The notes beneath the pieces are model-generated. The model was given only the letters and a program-made list of their open reading frames with translations, was not told the origin of the DNA and did not search any database. Position numbers and translations under genes: made by a program. From an uncultured delta proteobacterium (lineage in GTDB: Bacteria; Desulfobacterota; Binatia; UBA9968), in contig CAWDPO010000043.1 in assembly GCA_963804165.1 (NCBI GenBank), positions 224,001 to 288,000 of the forward strand: 64,000 bases of DNA. Direction: 5' to 3'. Below are positions 10,148 through 29,059 of the stretch, one piece after another (position 1 is the stretch's first letter; each line of letters opens with the position of its first letter).

Positions 10148-10170
10148 AAATACGTCTTGGGGTTGGCTTC

Positions 10171-10211
10171 CTAGTGCTTTCAATGCCGAACTTACTAACT
10201 TGAAAGACTAG
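10171..10211. repeat. CTAG-bounded inverted repeat (terminator or collapsed MITE)
   Basis: CTAGTGCTTTCAA ... TTGAAAGACTAG just after the asmA-like stop. Confidence 0.45.
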
Positions 10212-10464
10212 TCTAAGAGGACATCGGTAGGGGTAAAACCGCCATTTCCAATAAGTCAGAGTAGGAAAGTCGCTACATACGGGCTCGCTTCAAGCAGTTG
10301 TGGGTTGGGGATTATCATTCTCGCCTGGACAAAACTTTTTTCCCGCTGTACGGACCAATTTCATTAATTCATACACGATACCGCACACTTCGCGTTTGCA
10401 GTATGAGCCGTACCCCAGCGCCAAGGAATGACGCGGGCTGGTCAAGTCGATCGCAGGCGGAAAT

Positions 10465-10480
10465 AGGTATGGCCCTTGCA
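10465..10480 (+). promoter_or_regulatory. Probable sigma54 promoter of the mlaC-like gene
   Basis: AGGTATGGCCCTTGCA, GG-N10-GC with TTGC. Confidence 0.5.
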
Positions 10481-10608
10481 GTTCTTACTTACTACTTCGA
10501 ACCGGTAGGCAAAGTCATCCAGTATTAACTCCCCGTATTTGAGTGCCAGGGTTCATGGCTCGACCTCGTGTTTGTGCCTAGATCACGGACCATAGAGAGG
10601 GGAGACTT

Positions 10609-11203
10609 ATGAAAATCTTCAGATTTGGACTTGGTTTATGGATTTTTGTCTTTTTTATTGCCTTCGCTTCTCAGCGCAGGCGACGCCACCAAACAACTAA
10701 GCACGACGATTGATGGTTTTGTACCCATCATCAGCAACACCCCGCGCGAGGAATTGCAGGCAAATGGGATGCCTGAGAGCGCGCGTAAATTGGTGCTCGC
10801 TCGTTTCGATTTTTCTGAAATGACGAAGCGCTCGTTGGGTCAGCACTGGAAGTCGCTGAATCGGGGGGAACAGAAGCAATTTGTCGACGCCTTTACACAA
10901 TGGCAATTGATTTCTTATGGCAGAATCGTGCGCTCCTCTCGAGGCGATGAAGTTCAATTCAACCGTGAACTTCAGGATGGTAAGGATGTGAGCGTCGAGA
11001 CCAAGGTCGTGCGCCGCTACAGTGAGGATTTACCGATCGACTACTGGCTGCATAACGTCAACGGGCAGTGGAAAGTATACAATATGGTGATCGATCATGT
11101 GGATATCGTTAAAAATGTTCGCGCTCAATTTGAACGTGTAGTTGCCAAATCGTCACTTCAAGAGCTGCTCCAAAGGGTCAAAGATCAGAACCCGCGTTCA
11201 TGA
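10609..11203 (+). CDS. MlaC/Ttg2D-family phospholipid-binding protein; indel in T-run near 10655
   Basis: RBS GGAG plus ATG 10609 (MKIFRFGLGLWIFVF) joins the frame with FDFSEMTKRSLGQHWK, IDYWL, WKVYNMVID. Confidence 0.85.
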
Positions 11204-13324: not shown

Positions 13325-15695
13325 TTACAAATTCGTCCAGCGCCAATCGCGAATCTCCGGCAAATCATCGCCGTGCTTCGTGATGTATTCCTTGTGCTCG
13401 ATCAGCTTGTCGCGAATCGCTTGCTTGGCGTAGGCCGCGTGATAGCCGAGCTTCGGCACGCGGTCGATCACGTCCGCGACCAGATGAAACCGGTCCATGT
13501 CATTGCGCACGACCATGTCGAACGGCGTCGTCGTCGTGCCCTCTTCTTTGTAGCCGCGCACGTGCAGATTGTTATGATTGGTCCGGCGATACGTCAGGCG
13601 GTGAATCAGCCAGGGATAGCCATGGTAGGCGAAGATAATCGGCTTGTCGGTGGTAAACAGCGCATCGAAATCCTTCGAAGACAAGCCGTGCGGGTGCTCT
13701 TCCGCCGGTTGCAGCGTCATCAGATCGACGACGTTGATGAAGCGAATTTTCAAGTCGGGCATGGTTCGGCGCAGCAGGTGCACCGCCGCGAGCGTTTCCA
13801 ATGTCGGAATATCGCCGGCGCAGGCCATCACTACGTCGGGCTCCCCGTCCTTGTCGTTGCTCGCCCACTCCCAAATGCCGATACCGGCGGTGCAATGCTT
13901 GATCGCGGCTTCCATGTCTAGATATTGCAATGCCGGCTGTTTTCCCGCGACGATGATGTTGATGAAGTTGCGGCTGCGCAAACAGTGATCGGTGACTGAA
14001 AGCAAGCAGTTTGCATCGGGCGGCAGATAGACGCGGATGATGTCCGCTTTCTTGTTGCAGGCATGATCGATGAAGCCGGGATCCTGGTGCGAAAAGCCGT
14101 TGTGGTCTTGGCGCCAGACATGGGAGGACAGCAGATAATTGAGCGAGGCGATGGGCGCGCGCCAGGGAATTTCCTTGCTCGTGGTCTTGAGCCATTTGGC
14201 GTGCTGGTTGAACATCGAGTCGACGATGTGAATGAAGGCTTCGTAGGAGGAAAACAGGCCATGGCGTGCCGGTGAGCAGATAGCCTTCGAGCCAGCCCTG
14301 ACAGGTATGCTCGCTCAAAATTTCCATCACCCGCCCGTGCGGCGATAGCGTGATATCGTCCGGCGGCCGTATCGGCGAGCCAGGTTTTGTCGGTCACTTC
14401 GAACAGCGCATCGAGGCGGTTGGAGCTGGTTTCGTCGGGACCGAAGACGCGGAAATTTCGCGCGTCCAGGTTGAGCTTCATCACGTCGCGGAGCAGTTTG
14501 CCCATGACGCGCGTCGCTTCGGCAAATACTACGCCGGGTTCTTTAACCTCCACCGCGTAGGCGCGAAAGTCGGGCATGCGCAAATCTTGAAGCAACAGAC
14601 CGCCGTTGGCTACGGGATTGGCGCCCATGCGGCGCTGCGCCCTTGGGCGCCAACGTCTTTGCAGCTCGCGGCACCAGCGCGCCGCCTTGTCGAAAAGCTC
14701 TTCGGGCCTGTAACTTTTCATCCAGTCTTCGAGAATCTTGAGATGCTCCGCCGATTCCATGTTCCCCATCGGTACTTGATGCGAGCGCCAGGTTCCTTCA
14801 ATCTTCTCGCCGTCGACTTCCTTCGGGCCCGGTCCAACCTTTGGGCGTGCGCAGGACGATCATCGGCCAGCGCGGCCGCTGAGCGATGCCGTTGTTGCGC
14901 GCGTCTGTCGTGGATCGTCTTGATCTCGCCGATGACCGTATCGAGCGTCGCCGCCATCGCCTCGTGCATCGGATCGGCTCGTGCGCCTTCGACGAAATAA
15001 GGATGATAGCCGTAGCCGCTGAAACAGGCTCTCCAGCTCTTCTTTACTGATCCGCGCCAGCACCGTCGGATTGGCGATCTTGTAGCCGTTTAAATGCAGG
15101 ATCGGCAGTACCGCGCCGTCACTCGCCGGGTTGAGAAACTTATTCGAGTGCCACGCCGTCGCCAGCGGGCCGGTCTCCGCTTCGCCGTCGCCGATGACGC
15201 AGGCGACGACCAGGTCGGGGTTGTCGAAGGCCGCGCCGTAGGCATGGGAGAGCGCGTAGCCCAACTCTCCGCCTTCATGGATCGATCCGGGAGTCTCCGG
15301 CGCGACGTGGCTCGGAATCCCTCCGGGAAAAGAGAATTGTTTGAAGAGATTTCTGATGCCTTCTTCGTCCTGCGAGATATTGGGATAGACTTCGCTATAG
15401 GTTCCTTCCAGATAGACGTTGGCGACGATGCCCGGGCCGCCGTGGCCGGGACCGGCGATGTAGATCATGTTCAAATCGTTTTTGCCGATCACGCGGTTTA
15501 GGTGGACGTAAATAAAGTTCAATCCCGGCGTCGTGCCCCAGTGGCCGAGCAGCCGCGGTTTGATATGCGCGGTTTCAGCGGTTCTTTGAGCAGCGGATTA
15601 TCGAGCAAATAAATTTGTCCGACGGAGAGATAATTGGCGGCGCGCCAATAAGCGTCGAGGACTGGTGATTTCGTTTTCCGATAAACGTTCGCCAT
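13325..15695 (-). CDS. xfp: Xylulose-5-P/fructose-6-P phosphoketolase, several frameshifts
   Basis: [56 protein letters not shown] spread over several frames; AAGGAGGAGG RBS. Confidence 0.93.
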
Positions 15696-15714
15696 GGCAT
15701 CCTCCTCCTTGTCG

Positions 15715-16947
15715 GTATAACCCGCCGCGGATTGAAACAAACTTGTCGTCTCGCGCGCAATGATCGCTTCTTCATCGCTCGGGATCACATAGACGTGAAT
15801 GCCGCGTCCACAGCCGAGAAATAAGACTTTCCGCGCCGACTGCGATGGAATTATTCTTGTCCTGATCCAGCCGCAAGCCGCACCACTCCATGCCCGCGCA
15901 GATTTTTCCCGGACCACCGGCGCGTTCTCGCCGATACCGCCGCTGAAGACCACGGCTCGGCGCCGCCGAGCGCGCCAGGTAGCGCCCAAATATTTGCGCG
16001 CCCGATAGCAGAACACATCGACGGCCAGCCGTGCCCGCGCATCGGAATCGTAAGCGGAGATCAGTTCGCGCATGTCGTTGGAGCGCCCGGACAAGCCGAG
16101 CAGGCCGGAACGATGGTTGAGCCAGCGTTCGACCTCGGCCGCACTCGACCTTTTCCTTGCGCGCAAGATAGTTCACCAGCGCCGGATCGAGATCCCCGGA
16201 GCGCGTGCCCATCACCAAACCTTCGAGCGGCGTGAAGCCCATCGATGTGTCCACCGAGCGGCCGGCGCGGATCGCACACGCGGAACAGCCATTGCCCAGA
16301 TGCAGCGTCACGATATCGATCTCGCGCCCGGCCGGCCAGTCAGCTCGCCATAGCGCAGCAGCGAATATCGATGCGCCATACCGTGAAAGCCGTAGCGGCG
16401 AATATGGCGTGTTTTTTGGCAAGCTCGACAGTCGATGGCATAGGTCGCCGCGGTCGCGGAGATCGTGTGCGTGAAAAGCGGTATCGAATACCGCCGCCAT
16501 CGGCAGTGCCGGACCGAAAATTTTCCGCGCCGCGTGAATGCCGTCTACCGCCGCCGGATTATGCAGTGGCGCCAAGTCGTTCAACGATTCGATGCGCGCG
16601 AGCACATCATCGTTGATTGCCACCGCCGAGGTGAAAAGATCTCCGCCGTGTACCACGCGGTGGCCGACGGCGTCGACCTGCCGCTCGCCGGCGCCACTGG
16701 ACGTCGTCAAACCAAGGCGCTCGATGATCGCGCGCACTGCGATTTCGTGGTCCGCTGCGGCGAGCTTTTCTTCCGGTGGTGAAATCTTATCCCCGGCTTT
16801 CAGTTTGAAGACGGCAGCATCGCCGAGACGGTCGATCAGTCCCACCACGAGCTTGCGGTCTCGAATCGTCGCGGCTGAATCCTCGGCAGCTTCTATGAGT
16901 TGAAACTTCACCGAAGAGCTGCCGCAGTTCAGCACCAGAACATTCAT
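15715..16947 (-). CDS. ackA: Acetate kinase, several frameshifts, exact stop uncertain
   Basis: [63 protein letters not shown]. Confidence 0.92.
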
Positions 16948-18321: not shown

Positions 18322-21300
18322 CTAGCGCCTGCGGCGCGGCGACCGACCGCGCGCACTCGGTTTTTTCGACGGAGGTTTCTGCTCAGCTCTTTTTGGCCTC
18401 GAATTATTCGCCGCCGTGCAACTTCCCGGTCGAATCGTATCCGCCAGCCGGCGCAATCGTTGCGCGATCGCCGTATCCGCCTTCACTCGGCTTGTCCCGA
18501 TTCGAGTCGCAGCCTTGGCATCGAATAAAAGGGCCAGCAGACACAACTGCTGAGTGACGGAGTCGAGATCCTTGGGCACGATTTGAATATGGGCGAGCGC
18601 CTCCGTGTAGTGTCGGCTCACTTCCTCGAAGGCTTTCTCGCTTTTCCCGTCCTCGTTAGCCAATGCTCCGGTACACAACGATTCAACTAGATACGCGTCT
18701 GCTGCCATGACCGCGTTCCAAACATCGGGTGACTGCTTGAATCTGTCGTTCGCTTTGCCGGCGCACACAGCGCACTCCTGAACGCCTTCTTTATAAATTC
18801 CTTCGAGTGCCCTCAGCGCCAACCCGTTGAGCGCCGGATAAGGATCGAAGCGCTCGTCGGTCGCTTTCCCCGACCCGATCTCGTAGGCCTCGATGCTCGC
18901 CTGCACCGCGTCGTTGAACTCTTTCACCGTGGCTGCGGCGGTGTCGCCGGCGATGATCCTGTTTGCAAAGATTGCCGCTTTGCGTTTGTATGCGCTGCCG
19001 ATAACGGCTGCGCGCTCGACGTTCGCCGACAAACCCGCTTTGTCCGTTTTTGCAGAGCCGTCATCCGCCGGCCCGGCGGCAATGTGATTTAGATTTTTCA
19101 GGCGCGCGAGCGCGCGCTCGGCCAATTCGGCATCTCCGCTGCTTTCCGCAAGCCGAGATTCCAAGTTAGCCAATTGCTCGATGGCGGCGATCGGCACACG
19201 GCCGACTTTGTCCTCCGCGGCGATAGCAAATCTATAAAACTTGCGCGCATCTTCAAAATGTTCGACGCCGAGCAACGCGTAGGTCTGCGCCAGCTCGAAA
19301 TTCACGGCGGGTTTGCCCAGCCAATTTCTTGGACAACGGCTGAGAAGCTGTTTAAGTTCTGCGCCGATGCTCTTGGCGTCCGAGGGGGTCATCGACTCGC
19401 GGCGCCGGTAGATGTGAATGCGCAGCCGTTCGATTTGATCGATCAATTCTTCTGGCGCGATAAATCTACCGACATCCTCGCCACCGCCGTTGGACTCGGC
19501 GCGCGGATCCACGCGCCATCCCGGATCGCCGTAGGCTTGATAGGCGCCCCACGTGATGCTGCTGCCGTGTTTGCGGTAAGTCTCTCTGCGAGCTTCGAAT
19601 ATGGCGTCGCCGAACTGCAATTTGTCCTGCAGAATGCAGCGATAAAAAGTATCGGCGAAGCTGAGCGCAGCATCGTCGTCGACCGCCCATCCTGCCGCGA
19701 TCACACAGCGCACGCCGATCTCGATCAACTCGCGCGAGATGCTGTAAGCCAAACGATTGTATGCGATGGGCGTAGGATTCGCTTTTGCCAGATGACAGCA
19801 ATTGAGAAATACCAGGTCCGGAACGATCTCCATTTGGCCGATCTCGGCGGCTCCCAGCAACAGTCCATCGGACAGCACGACGCCGGTGCGAGTCACGCCG
19901 TCTGCCGCCGGCTGTTCGAAAAGGCCGTGCGCCGCGATGTGCACGATACGATACGGTTTTTGGTAAAGCGGCGTGATCACGTCTAGCGCCTTGCGCCCTT
20001 GGCCGATCGATGACTCGACCTGATAACCGTGGCGATTCAAGGCTTCCACGACCGCGCCCGCTTCTTCTTCCGCGCCGGCCAACGAATCCAATCCCTCGGT
20101 GGGTTGTCGATTCGGAAACGGAAACATCTTGAAGAAGTTTTCCGTTGACGGGTTCCCGATCACGTAGGCGAGAGGCTGCAGCGACTGGCGCACTTGGCGC
20201 CGAAAACGGCTGGATGAGAGTTGCCTGATCATGTGCGCGCCCACGGCGAGCGGTTCTTGATCCGCGAGCATCAGCTCCCAAGGCAAATTAGCGGTGTAGC
20301 CGTCGAGCACGAGCACGATGCGGTCGAGCTGGCGCGCCGCGTCTTTGAAATCCTGCGGCACCATCAGTTGAAACAGCGTCCGGCAAAACTCCGGTTGATA
20401 GCTCTGCGCACGAATCTGTTGTGCTATCAGCGACTCCACCAAACCGGGCTGGCGCTGCTGTACGATGGTTTCAGCGCGGGCGCGCTGGCCGACGTGCACG
20501 AAGCGCAAGCGCTCGGCGATCTTCGTCGGTTGCTTCGATCGATCCCCTTCGGCTCGCGGCGACTCGTCGACAGTCGGCTGGGACGAACCGTCTTCATCGC
20601 CGTCGGCGTTCGTGATGATCATGCGCGGCCAGTGGGCAACAGCCCGGCTATCGTCGAGTCGTTGCCGAACACCGATGCCTCGATCCAGTTCCTCGGGCAC
20701 TTCCAGGCGCACGCCGAGCTGACGGATGTCCGCGTTCATCTCTGCCGCAAAATCCGTCAATGAGTGCATCGCCGAGATTGCGCTATCGAGATACAACTCG
20801 ACGATTTCCAATGAGGATATCCTTAAAGAGCCGGCAGTCGCCTCGTTAAATTTAAGATTGCCCTCGACGACGCCGCGGATCAGCGCTTCAATGGAGGCAG
20901 CGACTGTAAGGTTTGCCGTGGAATTATAGCCCAATATCAGAGTGGACAGAGCGATTTCACCGCTGCGCCCGCCGCTGCAGTCGGCGTACTGGAGAAGGTA
21001 GCGAACGGCGCCTGTCCGCACCGCTTCGGTCAGCGTATTCGCTGACAGCGTGCCATCGTATTGCCCTAACCCCGTGACCACTGCCCCGCAAAAACTCCCG
21101 CGCAACCGCTCGGCGTCGTTGGGCAAGCGCAACACGACCACCGCGGTGCCGACCGGGCCGGCGTAAAGGCCCATGTTGTAGCGCTCGCTCAAGGCGCGGT
21201 CGACCACATCACGATCGATAATCGATTCCGCGCCGGAAATGGCGTCCTGTTCATAGTGGCCGACCATGATCGGCTGGGTCACGAAACGAAGATCCATCGC

Positions 21301-24267
21301 CTTGACCTTGACCCTCAGCGTCTCCACTTGCCGCGTTTTCATACGTTTGCGCTTCGATTTACCCATGAGCGGATGAGCGGCCTCTTCGGGCAACGGATAG
21401 CGCGGCGGCCCGGCCTCGTAGGACATCGGCTTCGCCGCTCTCACGTCCCGCACTGCGGGCGGCTTATCCGTCAAAACTCCAGTCACGCCGCTGCGAAGCA
21501 ATTCGGTCACGGCGCTGAAATATTCATCGGTGTTCGCCAGATCGCCGTGCACCGCCGGCATGTAGTAGCGCCTGCCGATTCCGCCGATCGCACCCGACTT
21601 CCACGTGACCGTGCCATCCCCTTCGGCGGTACCGATCATTTTCCAGCGGCCCCCAACTTTCTCGATACCGCAAGCCGTAACGGGAGCGCAGCCATGCACG
21701 TAAATGGTTTTTTCTTTGTGCGATTCCGGCAAAGCCGGCGTCAAACCATCGCGATCCCACAGCCATTTGCCTTGATTGAGCGCTGCATCGCTCGGCACCG
21801 CTGCGACCTTGTCGCCAAACCAGAAATCTTTCATGTCCTGTTTAAACGCTGTCCATCGGCCAGCGCTAAAATAATCATCGAACTGCGCGCCGCCGATGTC
21901 TTGAAAGCCCGGTTTCGGTAACAGCTGCAATGCACCGCGAAATTCACCGATGATATCGAGAATGGTTTGCAAGTCTTGCGCGATATCCAGGCGTGCGAGA
22001 GTGCGCAGCGTGTCGGATTTGCCGATCAGCGCTTCGACCATCGAGTGTGCGCCCTGGTTCGGCGTGCCGAGCATGATGAAGCGCGCGCCGTCGCGAGCCA
22101 TCAGCTGATCCCAGAGCTGAGGATTTTTGTGAACCAGCGAGCGCACGACCAAACCGCCCATGCTATGAGCGAGAATGCGAATCGGGCGCTCGGGATCCTT
22201 CGTAGCGTCGGCCAATCCGCGTAAAAACTTCTCTAGTTGTTCGGCTAGAATATCGAGAGGCAAGCGCCAGTCGTAAGGAAACCGTTCGACCCGGTGCGAG
22301 TCCATGAGATGCTCGCACAAATCGCCGTACGACATATCGAAGAGCTTTTCCGCGGCGATGCCGTCGCCCGCCGCTGATCCTGTGGCCACAGTCCAGCGCA
22401 GATCGTCGAGTCCGCCGGCCGCGATATCGGGAACGTCGAACCAGACACGGTCACTGTTATTTTTCCACAGATGGGAGCCCATGATTCCCGGCAACACGAC
22501 AACGACGGGCAGTGTGGCTTCCGCCGCCTCGCCGCCGCGGCTTCGGCGCAGAGCTGCGGTCCGGCTTATCTCTTCGGCCAGACTGGGTTCTTGCAAATCG
22601 CCGGGCAAGGTTTTGAAAAGCTCGAGGCGCTCGACCGCGTCCGAAAGCAGCCATTCGCGCAGCGCCGCGCGCGTGCTGTCATTCTGAAAATAGTGAAAAT
22701 GCGACGTCGCCGGTCCTTGATCGAGCAGCGCGCGCCCGCCGGCCTGACGTGCAATGCCGGCATACATCGAATCGGTATCGACGACCAGATCGTTGTCGAT
22801 GCCGCTGAAAAGAGCATAGTCCGTGAACAACACCCCCAACCTTTTGAGCAGGCCGCCACCTTCGATGTCACCGGCGATAACGGCCATTTGCGTGGACTCT
22901 TGCGGCTCGGCAACGGCTAAAAAACGCGCCATCGGCGAATCCGGCAGCATCGCCTCAATACCGGGAATGAGCTTGGCGTCCGTGCGGTTCTTGGCGATCT
23001 CAAGGACGATGCGCTTGAACGCGTAGTAAAGCGGGTTGCCGTAAAGATAGGGCACGCGACCGATCAACGTGAGTAAAGCCGAGAGGAAGATGTCGAGATT
23101 TCCCGAAGCGAGCAGCGTGCCGCGCGCCGGGCAGCCCACACGCACGTAACGTTGCATGACGAATTGCTTTTCCTGCAGCAGAGCGCGCAAATCGCGTAGT
23201 CTTGCTCGGAGTTCCGCGTGGGCATTGGCGACTTCGCTCTTTATGCGTTCCCGCTCCTCTTCGGAAACATCGCCGGGCTCCGGCAGATCGCTCTTGAACC
23301 CCTCGATCAGGTCGTCGCTAAAATTCTCCAGGCACAACAGATCGCCGATCAATCCGCCGCGCGAATGCGCGACCAGATTAATTTGCGCACCTTTGGGCAA
23401 CTTGGCCGCGAGCTCGATGGCGTTCTGAATCGGGCTCTCCGACAAGGTAGGATGTTCGAAGCCGTAGATCCGATCGTCGAACTTGGTTTCCAGCGCCTGC
23501 CAATCGCCTGAGGAACTTTTTTGCAAGTCGCCGAAGCTTCCGCACGTGGACGAACCGGTACCGTGAATAAAAACCAGCAGCGGCCCTTCCCTGGCATCCT
23601 TCGCCAGCGCCTCGTCGTCGATATTCACCAGATCGACCGCTTGTCCCGTGCCGCGCGGCCAGCGATATAGCCCCGGCTTTCGGTCGAGGCGATTTTCGAT
23701 CGCCCACATGAGCGCCTTGGTGCCGAGCCATGTGACACCCAGTCCGGCGTATCCCCGGATTTTTTCCTCCGCCTTCTCGCCCAGCCACTCTGCTGCTTTG
23801 CGTTTGGCCGCATCGATGATCGGATCGGCGACATCGCCCACCGTCAAGGTAAACACACGTGCAACAAGGTCACTGACCGCGTCGCCGATGATACCGCGGC
23901 TCTCCTCGGCGCGCTCATGCAGCGCATCGAGCTTTAACGTCCCGTCCGCTTCCACCGCCTCGGGATTGACCCGCTTCAGCGACTCTCGAAGCTTCGCCGC
24001 GCTGGTGATAACGGTCACGCCATCGGACATTTCCAAGACGACGACTTCGTCGTCGGCCGCTTGGATCGTTTTCTCGATAACGCCTTCGGCGCTTGAACGG
24101 GACCGCCGTCCGACTTCGAAAGCCGAGTTAATTTTCAAGTAGCCGTCTGGAAAAAACTCATCTGGCCTGGCGTCACCGGACGCGCGCGTCGCCCGACGCA
24201 AAGCATTGGGCAAAGCAGGATTGGCGATCGGAGTACCGGTAAGTTTAAGCGAAATGCTAACAGTCAT
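18322..24267 (-). CDS. Giant tandem-lipase + CHAT caspase-like protease + TPR-like protein (about 1980 aa)
   Basis: Hydrolase 1: FIHGTGS, AHSRGG, DLVV, SHF. Hydrolase 2: LPGIMGS, YDWR, AHSMGG, GDGTV, HGDL. CHAT: LPWELM, VHIAAHG, VFLNCC, WGAYQAYGDP. RBS AAGGAGAGG favours ATG 24267 (track start 24291). Confidence 0.9.
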   Translation of the reverse strand: MTVSISLKLTGTPIANPALPNALRRATRASGDARPDEFFPDGYLKINSAFEVGRRSRSSAEGVIEKTIQAADDEVVVLEMSDGVTVITSAAKLRESLKRVNPEAVEADGTLKLDALHERAEESRGIIGDAVSDLVARVFTLTVGDVADPIIDAAKRKAAEWLGEKAEEKIRGYAGLGVTWLGTKALMWAIENRLDRKPGLYRWPRGTGQAVDLVNIDDEALAKDAREGPLLVFIHGTGSSTCGSFGDLQKSSSGDWQALETKFDDRIYGFEHPTLSESPIQNAIELAAKLPKGAQINLVAHSRGGLIGDLLCLENFSDDLIEGFKSDLPEPGDVSEEERERIKSEVANAHAELRARLRDLRALLQEKQFVMQRYVRVGCPARGTLLASGNLDIFLSALLTLIGRVPYLYGNPLYYAFKRIVLEIAKNRTDAKLIPGIEAMLPDSPMARFLAVAEPQESTQMAVIAGDIEGGGLLKRLGVLFTDYALFSGIDNDLVVDTDSMYAGIARQAGGRALLDQGPATSHFHYFQNDSTRAALREWLLSDAVERLELFKTLPGDLQEPSLAEEISRTAALRRSRGGEAAEATLPVVVVLPGIMGSHLWKNNSDRVWFDVPDIAAGGLDDLRWTVATGSAAGDGIAAEKLFDMSYGDLCEHLMDSHRVERFPYDWRLPLDILAEQLEKFLRGLADATKDPERPIRILAHSMGGLVVRSLVHKNPQLWDQLMARDGARFIMLGTPNQGAHSMVEALIGKSDTLRTLARLDIAQDLQTILDIIGEFRGALQLLPKPGFQDIGGAQFDDYFSAGRWTAFKQDMKDFWFGDKVAAVPSDAALNQGKWLWDRDGLTPALPESHKEKTIYVHGCAPVTACGIEKVGGRWKMIGTAEGDGTVTWKSGAIGGIGRRYYMPAVHGDLANTDEYFSAVTELLRSGVTGVLTDKPPAVRDVRAAKPMSYEAGPPRYPLPEEAAHPLMGKSKRKRMKTRQVETLRVKVKAMDLRFVTQPIMVGHYEQDAISGAESIIDRDVVDRALSERYNMGLYAGPVGTAVVVLRLPNDAERLRGSFCGAVVTGLGQYDGTLSANTLTEAVRTGAVRYLLQYADCSGGRSGEIALSTLILGYNSTANLTVAASIEALIRGVVEGNLKFNEATAGSLRISSLEIVELYLDSAISAMHSLTDFAAEMNADIRQLGVRLEVPEELDRGIGVRQRLDDSRAVAHWPRMIITNADGDEDGSSQPTVDESPRAEGDRSKQPTKIAERLRFVHVGQRARAETIVQQRQPGLVESLIAQQIRAQSYQPEFCRTLFQLMVPQDFKDAARQLDRIVLVLDGYTANLPWELMLADQEPLAVGAHMIRQLSSSRFRRQVRQSLQPLAYVIGNPSTENFFKMFPFPNRQPTEGLDSLAGAEEEAGAVVEALNRHGYQVESSIGQGRKALDVITPLYQKPYRIVHIAAHGLFEQPAADGVTRTGVVLSDGLLLGAAEIGQMEIVPDLVFLNCCHLAKANPTPIAYNRLAYSISRELIEIGVRCVIAAGWAVDDDAALSFADTFYRCILQDKLQFGDAIFEARRETYRKHGSSITWGAYQAYGDPGWRVDPRAESNGGGEDVGRFIAPEELIDQIERLRIHIYRRRESMTPSDAKSIGAELKQLLSRCPRNWLGKPAVNFELAQTYALLGVEHFEDARKFYRFAIAAEDKVGRVPIAAIEQLANLESRLAESSGDAELAERALARLKNLNHIAAGPADDGSAKTDKAGLSANVERAAVIGSAYKRKAAIFANRIIAGDTAAATVKEFNDAVQASIEAYEIGSGKATDERFDPYPALNGLALRALEGIYKEGVQECAVCAGKANDRFKQSPDVWNAVMAADAYLVESLCTGALANEDGKSEKAFEEVSRHYTEALAHIQIVPKDLDSVTQQLCLLALLFDAKAATRIGTSRVKADTAIAQRLRRLADTIRPGSCTAANNSRPKRAEQKPPSKKPSARGRSPRRRR

Positions 24268-24675
24268 CTGCCTCTCCTTAGGTATCGGCATGGCTAGACT
24301 GAACGCAGACTGCGCGGCGACACGCTTTTACGCTATGATTCAAAACACATCCTGCAATAAAATAGTCAACGCGAAGTATTATAAATGAAGACTGGCGCTT
24401 ACGGGTACAAAGATTTTTACGGTCCGTGAGAGCCGGTCGTGCAGCAGGACGCAGCATTGGCTCTGCGGTAATTTTCTCGGAGCAATACGAATGCCAAGAA
24501 CTTCAGTCAACCGCCGTCGTGAGCAAGCTATCGAAGTTACGTGACTAGCCGCCCGGATCCTGATTTTACTGTTGAGATAGCCGGGGATTCGCCTCCGGGC
24601 TTGAGTGCTGTGTGAGTCCTGCCCGGTGTTGGAAATAAATTCGCGCGAGATCCGTTTCCTGATTCAGAGCCAATT

Positions 24676-25026
24676 TCAAAGCGGTAAGAAGCTGACCCGA
24701 TTCACCCATTCTTCAGCCTCGGTTGCTACCCAAATCAACCGCAGATCATCTACCACAGTCGCAACCGCAAGGTGCTGGGGAACAATCAGCAATCCCGGGG
24801 AAGTAGTTCCAGAAATAAATTCCGAGAAATGCCACGGCATGGTCTTGTGATCGTGTGTTACAAGTACCCGTCCCTCGCGAGCGGCCATTTCTAATACTTC
24901 TCGATCGTCTAATGACTTCAGACTGGCAGCGGCTGCCGTCTGGAAATCTATAGACGGTTCACGCCGCACTGTTGCCAACACAATTATCTGGTTCAGGTCG
25001 GCATCCGCCTGAAACCGAATTTTCAT
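24676..25026 (-). CDS. DUF5615 PIN-like toxin
   Basis: RFQADADL, DREVLEMAAREGRVLVTHD. Confidence 0.85.
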   Translation of the reverse strand: MKIRFQADADLNQIIVLATVRREPSIDFQTAAAASLKSLDDREVLEMAAREGRVLVTHDHKTMPWHFSEFISGTTSPGLLIVPQHLAVATVVDDLRLIWVATEAEEWVNRVSFLPL

Positions 25027-25340
25027 GGGTGTGAGATTTGAATCGTTCGGCGTGCGTCGGCTAGTTTCACATAGAACATCGGATCAGCGTCGCGGGCGGC
25101 TTGCCTCGCGATTTCATAATCCGCTTGAGCTTGAACGAGGTAGGCATCGATATCCGCCCGGTTGGATAGATAGAAAGCGACAGCGCCGTAAACTTGTTCC
25201 AATGTGAGCGCCGGAAAGGACTGTGCGATACTTTCAGCAGACTGGCCACTGAGAAAAGCGTAGACGACCGAGTCTAGCGAAACGCGAGTGTTGGAGATCC
25301 AATATCCTCCGTCTCGCTTTTCAACATATTCTTTGTTCAT
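25023..25340 (-). CDS. DUF433 antitoxin
   Basis: TRVSLDSVV...GQSAESIAQSFPALTLEQVYGAVAFY; ATGA overlap with the toxin. Confidence 0.88.
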   Translation of the reverse strand: MNKEYVEKRDGGYWISNTRVSLDSVVYAFLSGQSAESIAQSFPALTLEQVYGAVAFYLSNRADIDAYLVQAQADYEIARQAARDADPMFYVKLADARRTIQISHP

Positions 25341-25551
25341 AGGTGTACGTCTCTCCCAACCAACGCCCAATTATTAACCATGGCGCACACCAGATCAAGT
25401 CGCCGAGTGCATGCCATATGAGTCTTACTTAACGCGAGCAAAAATCCATCTAACCCTTTGGCTTGAACAGAGTTCAACTATATTAGATTGTGACGGCAGT
25501 GGATTCTTCAAATAAGGATTCGCAAAACTCTTGACGTCGATTGATCTGACC

Positions 25552-26613
25552 ATGAAACACTCACCGCCGTGGCTGATTTTCCTATGTCTATTGATCGCTT
25601 TCAGTTCGCTGCTGGTGCACGCACAAGACCCACGTCCCCGGCCGGAAGTGGAAACTCAGGAGCCGCATCTGCAGAACCTTAAGCAGTTAACTTCTGGTGG
25701 ACAGAACGCCGAAGCATACTTTTCGTATGACGGCACGAAAATCATCTTCCAATCCACTCGTCCGCCTTACCAGTGCGATCAGATCTTTAGCATGAACGTG
25801 GACGGCAGCGACGTGAAACTTTTAAACAGCGGCAAAGGCCGTACGACCTGTGGGTTCTTTTTCCCTGACGGCAAACGGGTCATTTATGCCTCGACCCACG
25901 TGGCAGGCGATGCCTGTCCGCCGGCGCCGGATCGAAGCCAGGGTTACGTCTGGCCGACTTATCCCTCGTATGAAATCTTCAGCGCCAATGTCGACGGCTC
26001 CGGATTGAAGCGCTTGACCCAGAACCCCGGGTACGACGCCGAGGGAACCATTGCGCCGGATGGGAAGAAAATCGTTTTCACCTCGATGCGCTCCGGCGAT
26101 CTCGACATCTACACGATGAACGCCGACGGCAGCGGCACAAAGAGACTTACAAGCGAAAAAGGCTATGACGGCGGCCCATTCTTCTCGTGGGACGGGAAAA
26201 CCATCGTCTATCGAGCATACCATCCTAAAACCAAGGACGAAGTAAAGGAGTACGAAACGCTCCTCAAGCAAAATCTGATCAAACCGACGCGCGCGGAAAT
26301 TTTTCTCATGTCGGCCGACGGCTCGAACAAGCGGCAACTCACCGACAACGGTGCGGCCAACTGGGCGCCGTTTTTACATCCCAACAATCGGCAGATAATT
26401 TTCTCCTCCAACCTGCACGATCCCGAACGGCGCAGTTTTTCACTTTACATGATTAACCTCGATGGCACCGGTCTGGTGCGCGTTACCTACGGCGCGCGTT
26501 TCGATAGCTTTCCGATGTTCTCGCGGGACGGCAAGAAACTCGTCTTCGCGTCGACGAGAGCTGAGAAAGAGGCGCGAGAGTTCAATATCTTTGTCGCTGA
26601 TTGGGCGCCGTAG
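25552..26613 (+). CDS. Secreted TolB-like PD40 beta-propeller protein
   Basis: Signal peptide; repeated FSxDGxxIxF units (AYFSYDGTKIIF, FFSWDGKTIVY, MFSRDGKKLVF). Confidence 0.88.
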   Translation: MKHSPPWLIFLCLLIAFSSLLVHAQDPRPRPEVETQEPHLQNLKQLTSGGQNAEAYFSYDGTKIIFQSTRPPYQCDQIFSMNVDGSDVKLLNSGKGRTTCGFFFPDGKRVIYASTHVAGDACPPAPDRSQGYVWPTYPSYEIFSANVDGSGLKRLTQNPGYDAEGTIAPDGKKIVFTSMRSGDLDIYTMNADGSGTKRLTSEKGYDGGPFFSWDGKTIVYRAYHPKTKDEVKEYETLLKQNLIKPTRAEIFLMSADGSNKRQLTDNGAANWAPFLHPNNRQIIFSSNLHDPERRSFSLYMINLDGTGLVRVTYGARFDSFPMFSRDGKKLVFASTRAEKEAREFNIFVADWAP

Positions 26614-26757
26614 AAGCGCATCACTATTGCTGCATTTCGTTCAAGAACCGGCGCAACGTTAGGTGGTGACATCCACCGCCTTTTTGAGTAGAGTCCTAGA
26701 GTCGGCCAAGCCCCATAATACTAATCGCGGGCGCGTCGACAATCGGAGGTAACTCTC

Positions 26758-28035
26758 TTGGAAACTGCGGCGCGCGAATTTCAGATCATGGTGAAAACGA
26801 TCGGGGCGATATGCAACCTCGATTGTCACTACTGCTATTACTTAGAGAAAGAGAATCTTTACCCCAAGGGCTCCAATTTTCGCCTCGACGACGAAACCCT
26901 CGAACGTTACGTCCAGCAGCATATCCGGGCGACCCCCGGCGAGATCGTCAGTTTTTCCTGGCACGGCGGCGAACCGACGTTGCTCGGCGTCGATTTTTTT
27001 CGAAAAGCGGTGGCGCTGCAGGAGAAGCATTTGCCGGACGACAAAAAGATCATCAACGGCATTCAAACCAACGGCACCACCATTGATGACGAATGGTGCG
27101 ATTTTCTCGCCAAGGAGAATTTCTACATCGGCCTCAGTCTCGACGGGCCGCGCGAACTGCACGATCACTATCGCGTCACCAAGGGACAGAAAACCACCCA
27201 CAAACAAGTCGTGCAGGCGTTCCAGATGCTCCGGCGCGCCAAAGTGCACGTCGATCTCCTCTGCGTCGTCCACGACGTCAACGTCAAGTATCCCACGCAG
27301 GTATATCGCTACTTCAAAGAAATCGGCGGGCAGTACTTACAATTCCTTCCACTGGTCGAGAAAACCGGCGAGCCGAACAACCCGGTGCACCAGCGCTCGG
27401 TGCCGGCGGCGGCTTACGGAAAATTTCTCAATACTATTTTCGACGAATGGATGCGCAACGACATAGGGAAGATTTTTATTCAACTTTTTGACGAGTCCGT
27501 GCGGCCGTTTCTCGGCATGGAGCACGCGCTCTGTATTTACCGTGAGACCTGCGGCGACGTGCCGGTGGTCGAACACAACGGCGATTTCTACTCCTGCGAT
27601 CACTATGTGTTGCCGGAATACAAGATCGGCAATATTCACGACCGGCCGCTGGCGGAGATGGTCGAGGACCCGAAACAACGCGAGTTCGGCCAGAAGAAGT
27701 GGACGAGCCTGCCCAAGTACTGCCGTGAGTGCGAAGTGCTCAGCATGTGCAACGGTGGCTGCCCCAAAGACCGCATCGTCAAAACCCCGGACGGCGAAGA
27801 AGGCCTAAATTATCTTTGCGCCGGATTAAAGGGTTTCTTCACGCACAGCAAGCCGTATTTTCAAAAATTCGCCGAGTTGGTCGGCGCCGGTGAGCCGGCG
27901 GAAAAGCTGATGGAAATCGTCCGCGCCGCCGACGCCAAGACCTCGGTTCGCCAGGCCGGTCGCAACGACCCTTGCCCCTGCGGCAGCGGCAAAAAATACA
28001 AACGCTGCTGCGGCGGCGCCCGTCCCGGAGTCTAG
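26758..28035 (+). CDS. Anaerobic sulfatase maturase-like radical SAM/SPASM enzyme with C-terminal SEC-C motif
   Basis: CNLDCHYCY, WHGGEPTL, YSCDHY, CRECEVLSMCNGGCPK, RNDPCPCGSGKKYKRCC. Confidence 0.9.
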   Translation: METAAREFQIMVKTIGAICNLDCHYCYYLEKENLYPKGSNFRLDDETLERYVQQHIRATPGEIVSFSWHGGEPTLLGVDFFRKAVALQEKHLPDDKKIINGIQTNGTTIDDEWCDFLAKENFYIGLSLDGPRELHDHYRVTKGQKTTHKQVVQAFQMLRRAKVHVDLLCVVHDVNVKYPTQVYRYFKEIGGQYLQFLPLVEKTGEPNNPVHQRSVPAAAYGKFLNTIFDEWMRNDIGKIFIQLFDESVRPFLGMEHALCIYRETCGDVPVVEHNGDFYSCDHYVLPEYKIGNIHDRPLAEMVEDPKQREFGQKKWTSLPKYCRECEVLSMCNGGCPKDRIVKTPDGEEGLNYLCAGLKGFFTHSKPYFQKFAELVGAGEPAEKLMEIVRAADAKTSVRQAGRNDPCPCGSGKKYKRCCGGARPGV

Positions 28036-28165
28036 GGCAAATCGTGCTCGTTTGACGTGTTCGTGAGCGGAAAACACGCATCACGATCACGCCCACGCGT
28101 CTTACCCTTGCGTCCCTTGCGTTCGCTGCGGTAAATCTCTTTCGTCTTAATCTACCGAGGAGCAA

Positions 28166-29059
28166 ATGATGACCCTGTACGACGACATGATGGAAGGCGT
28201 CATCGACGTCCACTGCCACATCGACTTCGAATTTTCCGCCAAGGAGCGTAAGCGTGAACCGGAGTTTCTCTGGTTTCCCAAGGCTGAGGCGATGGGCATG
28301 CGCGGCGTCGTGCTGAAATCACACTGGTGGCCGACCACCAACGTCGTTCCGTATATTCTCGCTTCGGTAGAGACCAAAGTCGCGGTCTGGTCGAGCGTCG
28401 CGCTCAACATCACCGCCGGCGGACCGAATCCTTGCATCGTCGAAGCCTGCGCCGAGCTCGGCGGCAGGATGATTTTTCTACCGACCTGGAGCGCGCGCAA
28501 CGACGTGGAGCGCAAGGGCTTCAGCAGCCGAATCAAATCTTACTACAGGAGCCACGCCAAGCTGGAGAACCCGAATTACTATTTCCTTGATGACAAGGGA
28601 AAACTGATTCCGCGCGGATATGAAATCATCGAAGCGTGCAAGTCCCACGATTTGACGCTCGGCATGGGTCACGTCTCTTGGCAGGAATCTCTAGCCTTCA
28701 TCGAAGCGGCGCGCGACATGGGCTACAGCCACAGAATCGTCGTCAACCACGTGCAGAGCCACATGATCGCCATGCCGGTCGACGCGATGAAGCGCGCCGC
28801 GGAAATGGGTGCGTTTCTCGAAGCGTGCTGGAATGCGCTGGCTCCCGGCCGGATGGATTCGCCGGATCTCGTCAAACAGTTTCGCGAAGTGGGTCTCAGA
28901 CAGATTATCGCGAGCACGGACTATTTCCGCCCCTACAGTCCAAATCCCGCTGAACTTTTTCGCATGTATCTCGGCATGCTGCACGAAGGCGGCCTGAGCA
29001 AAGGCGAAGTGAATCAAGTCGCGGCGATCAATCCGGCGCGTCTGATGGGCATGGCGTGA
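28166..29059 (+). CDS. Amidohydrolase-like TIM-barrel metalloprotein (DUF6282-like)
   Basis: IDVHCH, VLKSH, MGHVS, VNH, STD, NPARL; GAGGAG RBS. Confidence 0.75.
   Translation: MMTLYDDMMEGVIDVHCHIDFEFSAKERKREPEFLWFPKAEAMGMRGVVLKSHWWPTTNVVPYILASVETKVAVWSSVALNITAGGPNPCIVEACAELGGRMIFLPTWSARNDVERKGFSSRIKSYYRSHAKLENPNYYFLDDKGKLIPRGYEIIEACKSHDLTLGMGHVSWQESLAFIEAARDMGYSHRIVVNHVQSHMIAMPVDAMKRAAEMGAFLEACWNALAPGRMDSPDLVKQFREVGLRQIIASTDYFRPYSPNPAELFRMYLGMLHEGGLSKGEVNQVAAINPARLMGMA

Follow-up and report, generated by a model that had tools for sequence, protein, structure and literature searches.

A large bacterial protein that joins two lipase-type hydrolases, a macro-fold domain and a CHAT protease, and is often encoded next to a caspase

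We describe a large gene in a stretch of DNA of 64,000 nucleotides (the window, 64 kb) from an uncultured delta proteobacterium of the Binatia. The gene encodes, in a single chain, a leader, two hydrolases of the lipase type, a domain with the predicted fold of macro domains, a protease of the CHAT family, and a helical tail that resembles tetratricopeptide repeats (TPR). It is intact, far beyond what chance would give, and one member of a large conserved family. In relatives it usually forms a two-gene operon with a gene for a caspase of the Peptidase_C14 family (an orthocaspase). An earlier note on this DNA had taken the gene for a single-gene defence system of two lipases, a CHAT protease and a TPR-like tail, with no partner gene. 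The anatomy in that note held up. The order and limits of its domains match those that we obtained from predicted folds (residues 205-553, 594-938 and 989-1191); both hydrolases, the protease and the tail were recovered by structure comparison and by profiles; the catalytic residues are intact; and there is neither a frameshift nor a signal peptide. One alpha/beta domain that the note had left unassigned turned out to have the macro fold. The idea of a single gene without a partner is correct for the window and not for the family, and the proposed role in defence was supported only in part.

The gene is a single unbroken open reading frame (ORF) in the ORF listing of the window (18322..24291, minus strand, 1989 aa). 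The ATG at 24267 (Met9) is the likelier start, because AAGGAG lies 7 nt 5' of it and because the alignments in the consensus of homologs begin there. The protein would then have 1981 aa. Residue numbers are those of the 1989-aa ORF throughout. The whole protein has neither a hydrophobic N-terminus nor a clear transmembrane segment (the highest Kyte-Doolittle score of any 19-mer was 1.68, at residues 393-411), and this supports a cytoplasmic location.

We predicted the structure in two halves, each from an alignment of 63 rows. The model of residues 1-975 had a pLDDT of 85.3 and a pTM of 0.80, and the model of residues 960-1989 had a pLDDT of 82.0 and a pTM of 0.71. Four Pfam families matched the whole protein above their curated cut-offs: DUF7379, LCAT, CHAT and TPR-S.

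Hydrolase 1 is a member of DUF7379 (PF24096; best stretch, residues 239-319, E 9.4e-32, 110.9 bits, cut-off 33). The structures that it matched were lipases, monoacylglycerol lipases and generic alpha/beta hydrolases (Z 13-15.4). The best was lipase CTL (8yye_B; Z 15.4, 258 residues aligned, root-mean-square deviation (rmsd) 4.1), followed by lin2722 (Z 14.5) and a monoacylglycerol lipase (6qe2_B; Z 14.4). The most hydrophobic 19-mer of the protein, residues 393-411 (LLASGNLDIFLSALLTLIG; window ~23058-23114), is a nearly invariant helix inside this hydrolase. This helix might serve as an interfacial lid or as an element that binds membranes.

Hydrolase 2 matched both the LCAT profile (PF02450; residues 669-756, E 5.4e-8, 32.9 bits, cut-off 21) and the fold of LCAT-like phospholipases. 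The closest structure was lysosomal phospholipase A2 (LPLA2, 4x90_A; Z 27.0, 308 residues aligned, rmsd 3.1). The phospholipase Tle4 of the type VI secretion system (T6SS; 4r1d_A, Z 20.9) and the Legionella phospholipase PlaB (6zth_A, Z 17.9) were also matched, and Foldseek gave a concordant result (4x92, E 1.1e-9). When the sequence of the whole protein was searched against PDB chains, LCAT alone was found (E 0.022). By its modelled fold hydrolase 2 is clearly phospholipase-like, and such an activity is predicted.

The third enzyme is a CHAT protease. The Pfam profile (PF12770; residues 1302-1589, E 3.3e-31, 109.3 bits, cut-off 24) is covered from position 3 to position 289 of 289, and the His-Cys dyad and a fold of the caspase/separase type agree with it. 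The best structural match was separase (5fc2_B; Z 22.7, 291 residues aligned, rmsd 3.6). Others were the anti-sigma factor DdvA (8rot_B, Z 19.3), Csx29 (7y9x_B, Z 18.8; with Foldseek, 8eex_B, E 1.1e-4), gingipain (4ief_B, Z 18.3) and SAVED-CHAT (8tl0_A, Z 17.8). Separase, DdvA, Csx29 and SAVED-CHAT are regulated, signal-activated proteases of clan CD. A search of NCBIfam with the whole protein gave only HetF (E 0.0072, 14.6 bits; cut-off 1200).

The tail that follows the protease passed the TPR-S cut-off marginally (PF20308; residues 1679-1826, E 3e-6, 28.2 bits against 27.6) and scored 32 bits when searched alone. It matched the TPR region of ASK1 (5ulm_B, Z 18.1), Pins (4a1s_A, Z 15.2) and Rap proteins (~Z 15). 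Values of Z 15-18 are near the noise level for helical repeats, and the TPR-S profile supports the assignment.

We followed the catalytic residues through 116 full-length sequences, including the query, that is, all those of 1900-2150 aa among 121 stored proteins. The motifs lie at residues 308 (AHSRG), 708 (AHSMG), 1453 (AAHG) and 1496 (LNCC). Five residues of hydrolase 1 (S310, D475, D491, D501 and H531), two of hydrolase 2 (D892 and H915) and both members of the CHAT dyad (H1455 and C1498) are invariant (116/116). The nucleophile of hydrolase 2, S710, is Ser in 109 of the 116 and Gly in the other 7 (P0056, P0114, P0116 and P0118-P0121), which retain D892, H915 and S310. Hydrolase 2 may be non-catalytic in this one sub-clade, judging by the replacement; the protein of the window keeps the full triad. 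Mean column conservation was 0.7-0.8 in the catalytic cores and 0.43-0.63 in the TPR tail.

In the model, residues 989-1191 have the macro fold without belonging to the Pfam Macro family. The best matches were the N-domain of a leucine aminopeptidase (LAP; 7y1s_A, Z 15.2, 164 residues aligned) and the macro domain of Chikungunya virus (CHIKV; 3gpg_A, Z 14.5, 155 of 162 residues aligned, rmsd 2.9). Af1521 (7wr6_B) gave Z 14.0, and Af1521, PARP14 and macroH2A were all at Z 13-14. Foldseek gave the same macro/LAP-N fold, and the ESM Atlas independently linked the domain to clusters of Peptidase_M17_N. What is shared with canonical macro domains (PF01661) and with the N-domain of M17 LAP is the fold; similarity in sequence or profile was not seen. 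Pfam gave no match at E≤10 for residues 965-1296. Against PDB sequences, the best match of a profile of the domain had an E of 0.87. A search of the whole genome with PF01661 found two other genes and not the large gene, and hhalign gave a probability of 0.11 for the domain against a set of 17 canonical macro proteins from the same order, in which the canonical macro locus L116 of the unpublished genome G005 is not included. The canonical ADP-ribose-binding signature is absent as well, in that NAAN...GGGG and STGxYG are replaced by motifs of the family. The domain has invariant motifs of its own: AMDL, VGHYExDxIxGAE, LGLYAG, GAVVTGLG and LLLGYNS. Because of the hhalign result we dropped membership in the canonical macro family, and with it the assignment as a canonical ADP-ribose sensor, and kept the fold.

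The macro-like domain is followed by CHAT in all of eight length variants of the protein that we sampled, some of which may be truncated metagenomic genes. Four of the eight also passed the TPR-S cut-off. Their N-termini differ, and carry two lipases, a single LCAT-like lipase, or nothing that Pfam assigns to a family. The constant pairing and the changing N-termini suggest that the macro-like domain, CHAT and the TPR tail are a core to which exchangeable N-terminal payloads are attached.

The family is large. A word-index search gave 905 homologs at E≤1e-3 among 8000 candidates scored. The best 120 of the 905 had an E of 0; nearly all were 1,930-2,110 aa long and carried precomputed Pfam matches to CHAT and DUF7379, most of them also to LCAT and TPR-S, and, where named, they were called solely "CHAT domain-containing protein". 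In a scan of one genome per species, at least 598 stretches matched and at least 515 were confirmed, so that the family is present in at least 515 species genomes. The best 80 of these were kept as loci. A profile of the macro-like domain matched 1,506 cluster representatives (50% identity) at E≤1e-3, and 1,278 at E≤1e-10.

Among the best 80 loci, the closest are from metagenome-assembled genomes (MAGs) labelled Candidatus Binatia (76-77% identity). One ortholog, 76% identical and in an unpublished genome (G005, locus L002), adjoins a Peptidase_S51 gene. Many of the 80 are from Burkholderiales and Rhodocyclales, including cultured Variovorax, Paucibacter, Roseateles, Azohydromonas and Aromatoleum; Cyanobium, Verrucomicrobiae, Desulfobacterales, Polyangiaceae and Devosia are also represented. 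The genus of the window has 6 orthologs, 4 paralogs (36-38% identity) and 2 short forms among 25 genomes; the large gene is accessory there. It is carried by 7 of the 41 genomes in the genus to which the Variovorax record belongs. Among sequencing runs, none of RNA was listed as containing the gene, and sequence-word shares in contigs of soil and rhizosphere metagenomes were at most 0.12, from which we draw no claim about habitat or expression.

We found that the large gene is frequently preceded by a second protease gene. In 41 of 64 loci with a large gene of at least 1700 aa, an upstream ORF of 260-420 aa on the same strand ends 4-243 nt before its start. In four examples, this ORF encodes a Peptidase_C14 caspase (E 1.3e-17 to 3.9e-27). 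When a hidden Markov model (HMM) of the partner was run over the best 80 loci, the caspase was directly upstream in 55 and missing from 19; the other 6 were too short, since a locus was called partner-less only if it had at least 1.3 kb of upstream DNA. That is, 55 of 74 testable loci have the partner, and the family is usually a two-gene operon. The partners retain the SGHG/DSCHSG dyad and have a conserved PR-PRFMP motif in the inter-subunit linker. In PADLOC they matched only the generic "caspase" model PDLC02987 (E 1.8e-18 to 2.9e-8).

The partner is not in the 64-kb window, nor at the loci of the closest relatives (L002-L010 and L076). The genome of the window has exactly one C14 gene, unlinked, on another contig (G000:C46:88304-89179) and among unrelated genes. 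It scored 246 bits on the partner HMM, less than true partners (286-465 bits) and more than other C14 fusions (~140 bits). Its identity with the operonic partner at locus L019 is 52%, and the large protein of that locus is ~53% identical to that of the window over the N-terminal half. Orthologs of this C14 (at least 71% identity) are in 7 of the 10 genomes of the genus with the large gene or the 36-38% paralog, and in 3 of the 15 others. This co-occurrence is suggestive, as related genomes are not independent. Three of five genomes with partner-less loci hold a partner-like C14 elsewhere. We considered whether the partner is obligatory; genomes with the large gene and without a C14 (see below) rule this out. 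The partner is frequent but facultative. The predicted complex of the macro-like and CHAT part with the unlinked C14 scored 0.00 (mark, 0.32), which is evidence neither way.

C14 domains were also seen in other arrangements. A shorter member of the family in the genus of the window (G003:C5:133997-138229, minus strand; a 1144-aa open frame with LCAT-like, macro-like and CHAT regions) has a more distant C14 match directly upstream, so the two-gene theme recurs in this other length variant. In two Cyanobium loci (L047, 7485-9437; L050, 16199-18208), the large gene is followed downstream by a second gene, for a protein of 650-670 aa whose Peptidase_C14 domain is N-terminal. L050 also has an upstream C14 partner, and the upstream DNA of L047 is too short to tell.

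Table 1. Parts of the large gene and neighboring genes in the window
Feature	Residues	Position in window	Strand	Remarks
Whole coding sequence	9-1989	18322..24267	-	ATG at 24267 is Met9 of the 1989-aa ORF; stop codon 18322-18324
N-terminal leader	9 to ~204	23680..24267	-	Predicted folded alpha/beta domain without a family assignment; conserved within the family
Hydrolase 1 (DUF7379)	~205-553	22633..23679	-	Nucleophile Ser310 (AHSRG); D475, D491, D501 and H531 are triad candidates
Linker 1	554-593	22513..22632	-	Conserved R-R-S-R-G motif
Hydrolase 2 (LCAT / LPLA2-like)	594-938	21478..22512	-	Triad Ser710 (AHSMG), Asp892 (GDGTV), His915
Linker 2	939-988	21328..21477	-	Low model confidence, basic (GKSKRKRMKTR)
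Macro / leucine-aminopeptidase-N-like domain	989-1191	20719..21327	-	From structure comparison and ESM Atlas
CHAT protease and its N-terminal sub-domain	1192-1599	19495..20718	-	His1455 (AAHG), Cys1498 (LNCCH)
Helical TPR-like tail with Pfam TPR-S	1609-1959	18415..19467	-	Least conserved part of the protein
Basic disordered C-terminal tail	1960-1989	18325..18414	-	Poorly conserved
DUF5615 ORF		24676-25026	-	E 9.9e-8
DUF433 ORF		25023-25370	-	E 2.2e-9
PD40 beta-propeller, radical-SAM/SPASM with C-terminal SEC-C, and DUF6282 genes, consecutive		25531-29059	+	
Phosphoketolase (XFP) and acetate kinase genes		13918-16947	-	Fragmented
AsmA-family and MlaC genes		8033-11203	+	Outer-membrane lipid transport

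The remaining parts of the protein are the leader, the linkers and the C-terminus (Table 1). The leader was modelled with a pLDDT mostly of 80-90 (strands at residues 12-18, 52-59 and 73-97; helices within 98-199). It had no Pfam match at E≤10, and in the ESM Atlas the top score for residues 1-236 was 0.79, within the range of shuffled controls. The matches to the 36-38% paralogs begin at residue 234 and do not cover the leader. In linker 1, R585 is kept in 104 of the 116 sequences. In linker 2, G977 is present in all 116, R981 in 80, R983 in 84 and R987 in 80. These Arg motifs are conserved amid otherwise variable linkers and are candidate sites for cleavage of the Arg type. The C-terminal tail has a pLDDT below 50 at model residues 1002-1024, and its conservation is 0.26 with 29% gaps.

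A Peptidase_S51 gene lies directly downstream of the large gene in the window, on the same strand, and in relatives of the same genus S51 adjoins the large gene wherever the locus extends as far as the 3' end. On the other side, these relatives have either a glycine-reductase-like gene or PD40. In the window, the upstream side is occupied by the DUF5615/DUF433 pair, the PD40 propeller, the radical-SAM gene and DUF6282. The DUF5615 and DUF433 genes are small overlapping ORFs 5' of the large gene and, from their family matches, look like a toxin-antitoxin pair; in relatives, a glycine-reductase-like gene replaces them. The radical-SAM gene matched the PADLOC viperin model (pVip, E 6.9e-16). We rejected this assignment and read the match as generic radical-SAM similarity, because the protein has SPASM and SEC-C domains and because its gene, like that for DUF6282, keeps its place in relatives without the large gene.

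Further downstream in the window are the genes for acetate kinase and phosphoketolase, both fragmented, and then MlaC and AsmA. The phosphoketolase gene is split over at least two ORFs, and the acetate kinase ORF matches its profile only from position 2 to position 256 (of 392). Contig C46 of the same genome has a PolX gene that is likewise split (L091, 6728-8468). The split genes are either assembly indel errors (the genome is in 46 contigs) or pseudogenes; the large gene is unbroken. The MlaC and AsmA genes are ~7-10 kb away, with no evident link to the lipase domains.

Comparison with genomes of the genus that do not have the large gene showed what takes its place. In one of them (G015), S51 is followed by a glycine-reductase-like gene, DHDPS and the radical-SAM gene, and 2.4 kb separate S51 from radical-SAM. 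In another (G004), the same interval is 9.4 kb and contains NMT1, GRDB and glycine-reductase-like genes. In the genus of the window, the large gene thus behaves as a single-gene indel, at one fixed site with metabolic genes around it.

Outside this genus, two relatives are on plasmids. One that is 32% identical is on a mobilizable Azotobacter plasmid, with a type I restriction-modification (R-M) system, a PD-(D/E)XK nuclease, two Fic genes, a recombinase and three insertion sequence (IS) elements nearby. A copy on a Paracoccus plasmid lies among sugar-utilisation genes. On the Paracoccus yeei plasmid pTT13-4 (L111, 5262-8546), a gene for a 1094-aa hypothetical protein is directly upstream of a 31.5%-identical CHAT relative, on the same strand; it is a possible alternative partner for that branch. 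In a Verrucomicrobiae locus (L077, 2652-10016, minus strand), a 2455-aa open frame on the opposite strand ends at the start of the family member; it is either a real giant gene or an antisense artefact of high G+C content.

Of the known systems, the one that the protein appears to resemble most in its working is the SAVED-CHAT/PCaspase cascade of a CRISPR-CBASS hybrid (type III-B). There, the CHAT protease is reported to cleave and activate a second caspase, which then cleaves many proteins (Steens et al., 10.1101/2023.06.23.546230). Both have a regulatory domain fused to the N-terminal side of CHAT; the solved SAVED-CHAT filament (8tl0_A) is among the structural matches of our CHAT domain (Z 17.8); and a small separate caspase gene stands beside the CHAT gene in that system, as it does here in 55 of the 74 testable loci. 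In contrast, SAVED, which defines that family, is absent from the Pfam matches of the large protein, which has the macro/LAP-N fold instead. Neither CRISPR nor cyclase genes adjoin it here, the second caspase is not adjacent in the window, and the large protein adds two lipase domains and the TPR-S tail.

Other systems share single elements. Like the large protein, Csx29 of Craspase has TPR repeats and CHAT in one chain. In Csx29, however, the TPR is N-terminal and docks on Cas7-11, whereas TPR-S is C-terminal here, and Csx29 does not carry effector enzymes in its own chain. The scanned neighbors in the window included no Cas families, and 129 neighbor ORFs of relatives included a single Cas6; the whole genome was not searched for Cas7-11. 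In type IV Thoeris, a signal-activated caspase-like protease is reported to kill by proteolysis (Rousset et al., 10.1101/2024.10.24.620036), and a reporter peptide for that protease ends in Arg (10.64898/2025.12.03.692087). Such a reporter would be in line with the Arg-rich linkers of the large protein. The architecture differs. Type IV Thoeris depends on a TIR gene beside that of the protease, and a C-terminal domain is what senses N7-cADPR there. TIR was absent among the neighbors in the window and, for the 129 neighbor ORFs, among their 25 commonest Pfam families; one of these ORFs matched a ThsA model.

Hydrolase 2 shares its fold and Ser-Asp-His triad with LCAT/LPLA2, Tle4 and PlaB. Those enzymes are stand-alone proteins that are secreted, lysosomal or injected, whereas hydrolase 2 is internal to a giant, apparently cytoplasmic protein and lies beside a second lipase-like domain. 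The CBASS effector CapV is a patatin-like phospholipase that is activated by direct binding of a nucleotide. By analogy, it would share with the large protein the concept of a signal-activated phospholipase as executioner in abortive infection. The two differ in fold (patatin versus alpha/beta hydrolase) and in control (activation by a nucleotide versus the gating by a protease proposed here). Alpha/beta-hydrolase and caspase effectors and macro domains of conflict systems are named by Kaur et al. 2021 (PMC8195603), in passages that do not mention the architecture of the large protein. A functional study of this architecture, or a paper on DUF7379, was not found in the literature searched, which did not extend to supplementary tables, where the family might be listed.

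The reading that we favor is a sensor-gated cascade of CHAT and orthocaspase that unleashes phospholipases, with a role in conflict or cell death (abortive infection). We consider it plausible, if somewhat short of probable. We infer its order of events, cleavage sites, membrane target, trigger and defence role as follows. At rest, both phospholipase-type hydrolases would be held inactive in a compact unit of the leader, hydrolase 1 and hydrolase 2. The variable TPR-S tail would detect a protein or peptide cue, and the macro/LAP-N-fold domain would relay the signal, through assembly or through binding of a small ligand. CHAT would be switched on, probably by assembly as in SAVED-CHAT filaments, and would cut after basic residues, in its own Arg-rich linkers, in the linker of the companion C14 (the PR-PR motif), or in both. 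It is possible that cleavage runs in the opposite direction, with C14 cutting the large protein. The freed phospholipases would degrade the membrane lipids of the cell itself while the orthocaspase widens proteolysis. The outcome would be growth arrest or cell death, most plausibly aborting phage infection or another conflict.

A more specific form of this reading is possible but rather unlikely. In it, the large protein would be the founding, unstudied member of a widespread kind of apoptosis-like executioner in bacteria: a TPR-sensed and macro-gated CHAT would fire an orthocaspase in a cascade of two caspase steps and free twin phospholipases by cutting the Arg-rich linkers, and the membrane of the cell itself would dissolve. 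The family, in at least 500 species, would then be a new one for abortive infection or cell suicide, and its divergent macro-fold domain would read a nucleotide-derived or peptide signal.

In favor of the cascade are the established architecture and active sites, the close match of hydrolase 2 to phospholipases that attack membranes, the likeness of CHAT to regulated clan-CD proteases, the C14 gene upstream in 55 of 74 testable loci, which mirrors the SAVED-CHAT/PCaspase cascade, the single partner-like C14 in the genome of the window, the Arg motifs of the linkers, the modular core, the variable TPR tail, the accessory status of the gene in two genera, and the R-M and IS surroundings of the Azotobacter relative. 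Several observations weigh against it. In the genus of the Paucibacter record, the large gene is in at least 22 of 28 species genomes (with a stricter filter), and seven related loci have neighbors in common, so the gene looks core-like there and does not have the fast turnover typical of defence genes. Stable housekeeping contexts, which the earlier note had named as speaking against defence, are thus found in part of the family. In the genus of the window, the slot of the large gene is filled in relatives without it by glycine-reductase-like, NMT1 and DHDPS genes and not by defence genes, and we rejected a defence island for this reason. PADLOC-DB 2.0.0, a check that the note had proposed, gave no match to the large protein (the best was BovA, E 0.034). 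We also surveyed 129 neighbor ORFs (at most 560 aa, and at most two flanking ORFs per side) from ~50 relatives outside the Binatia-labelled group. No PADLOC family occurred in more than two of them: mad2 was found twice, and Cas6 models, mad3, mad8, ThsA, LmuA, PtuB, PycC and two PDC models once each. Their Pfam families were mostly housekeeping (DPBB_1 in 5, SPOR in 4, SDR in 3, LysR in 2). No TIR, cyclase, CRISPR or gasdermin genes were seen adjoining the large gene in the window or among the scanned neighbors. The macro-like domain has no canonical ADP-ribose-binding signature and no Pfam Macro match, and its hhalign probability against canonical macro proteins is low. Finally, a close C14 is missing from 3 of the 6 same-genus genomes with orthologs, one of which (the unpublished G005) is rated 100% complete, and 2 of the 5 genomes with partner-less loci (cultured Variovorax and Aromatoleum) have no C14 at E≤1e-10.

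Much of this would fit regulated proteolysis and lipolysis with an endogenous purpose, that is, death or membrane remodelling triggered by stress, starvation or development, with the TPR tail sensing a protein or metabolite of the host cell. Comparable cases are the programmed cell death linked to orthocaspases in cyanobacteria and the regulatory CHAT proteins of the HetF/DdvA type. Such a role is favored by the near-universal presence in the Paucibacter-record genus and the synteny kept over seven related loci, by the mostly housekeeping neighbors, by the lack of a PADLOC match and by the structural match of CHAT to DdvA (Z 19.3); the HetF match, far below its cut-off, serves as a reminder that regulatory CHAT proteins exist. 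However, the gene is patchy in two other genera and a single-gene indel in the genus of the window, one plasmid relative sits in an R-M/IS setting, and two intact lipases with two proteases would be a heavy payload for pure regulation. The range of the family, from Binatia MAGs through Burkholderiales, Cyanobium, Verrucomicrobiae and Desulfobacterales to Polyangiaceae, also suggests horizontal spread. We regard an endogenous role as possible but rather unlikely. Two further explanations are less likely still. The hydrolases could be independent enzymes, a pair that metabolises lipids or esters on a CHAT-TPR scaffold for assembly or turnover, with neither proteolytic gating nor killing. Hydrolase 1 does match only generic alpha/beta hydrolases (Z 14-15), the neighbors in the genus of the window are metabolic, and the loss of Ser710 in 7 of 116 sequences indicates that the activity of hydrolase 2 is dispensable in some members. 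But the invariance of the His-Cys dyad, the constant pairing of the macro-like domain with CHAT and the recurrence of a second caspase gene in the operon speak against this explanation, and no metabolic pathway genes are conserved nearby across lineages; it is improbable.

An exported polymorphic toxin is very improbable. MARTX toxins have a cysteine-protease domain that auto-processes the toxin after delivery, and a lipase payload sent into competitor or host cells could be freed in the same manner by the clan-CD protease of the large protein. The resemblance of hydrolase 2 to Tle4 (Z 20.9) and PlaB (Z 17.9) and the multi-effector, polyprotein-like layout with conserved linker motifs are what such a toxin would have. 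In contrast, the protein has no signal peptide and no transmembrane segment; PAAR, VgrG, Rhs, RTX and secretion families are absent from its Pfam matches and from the 25 commonest families of the 129 neighbors; no small immunity-like gene is conserved downstream; and TPR-S and CHAT modules are cytoplasmic sensors in the solved systems that were matched structurally. We set aside a secreted T6SS toxin, as these secretion features are absent. T6SS families were likewise absent from the 25 commonest neighbor families, and the genomes were not searched for T6SS.

Caspase-type proteases run bacterial immunity in Craspase, in the SAVED-CHAT/PCaspase system, in type IV Thoeris and in the activation of gasdermins. 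To our knowledge, all of the bacterial immune proteases of this type that have been studied cut separate target proteins. If the cascade that we favor is correct, the family would differ from the studied cases by having the executioner phospholipases built into the protease's own chain. The second caspase would usually come from the same operon, and a divergent macro-fold domain would take the place of SAVED or other ligand sensors. To the earlier anatomy, our analysis chiefly adds this domain and the recurrent orthocaspase partner. Because members are present in cultured and harmless isolates of Variovorax, Paucibacter, Roseateles, Aromatoleum and Azohydromonas, the family is directly testable. 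With a core-like presence in one genus and a patchy one in others, the gene may be a useful case for distinguishing immunity from stress-induced suicide, or for finding that one system does both.

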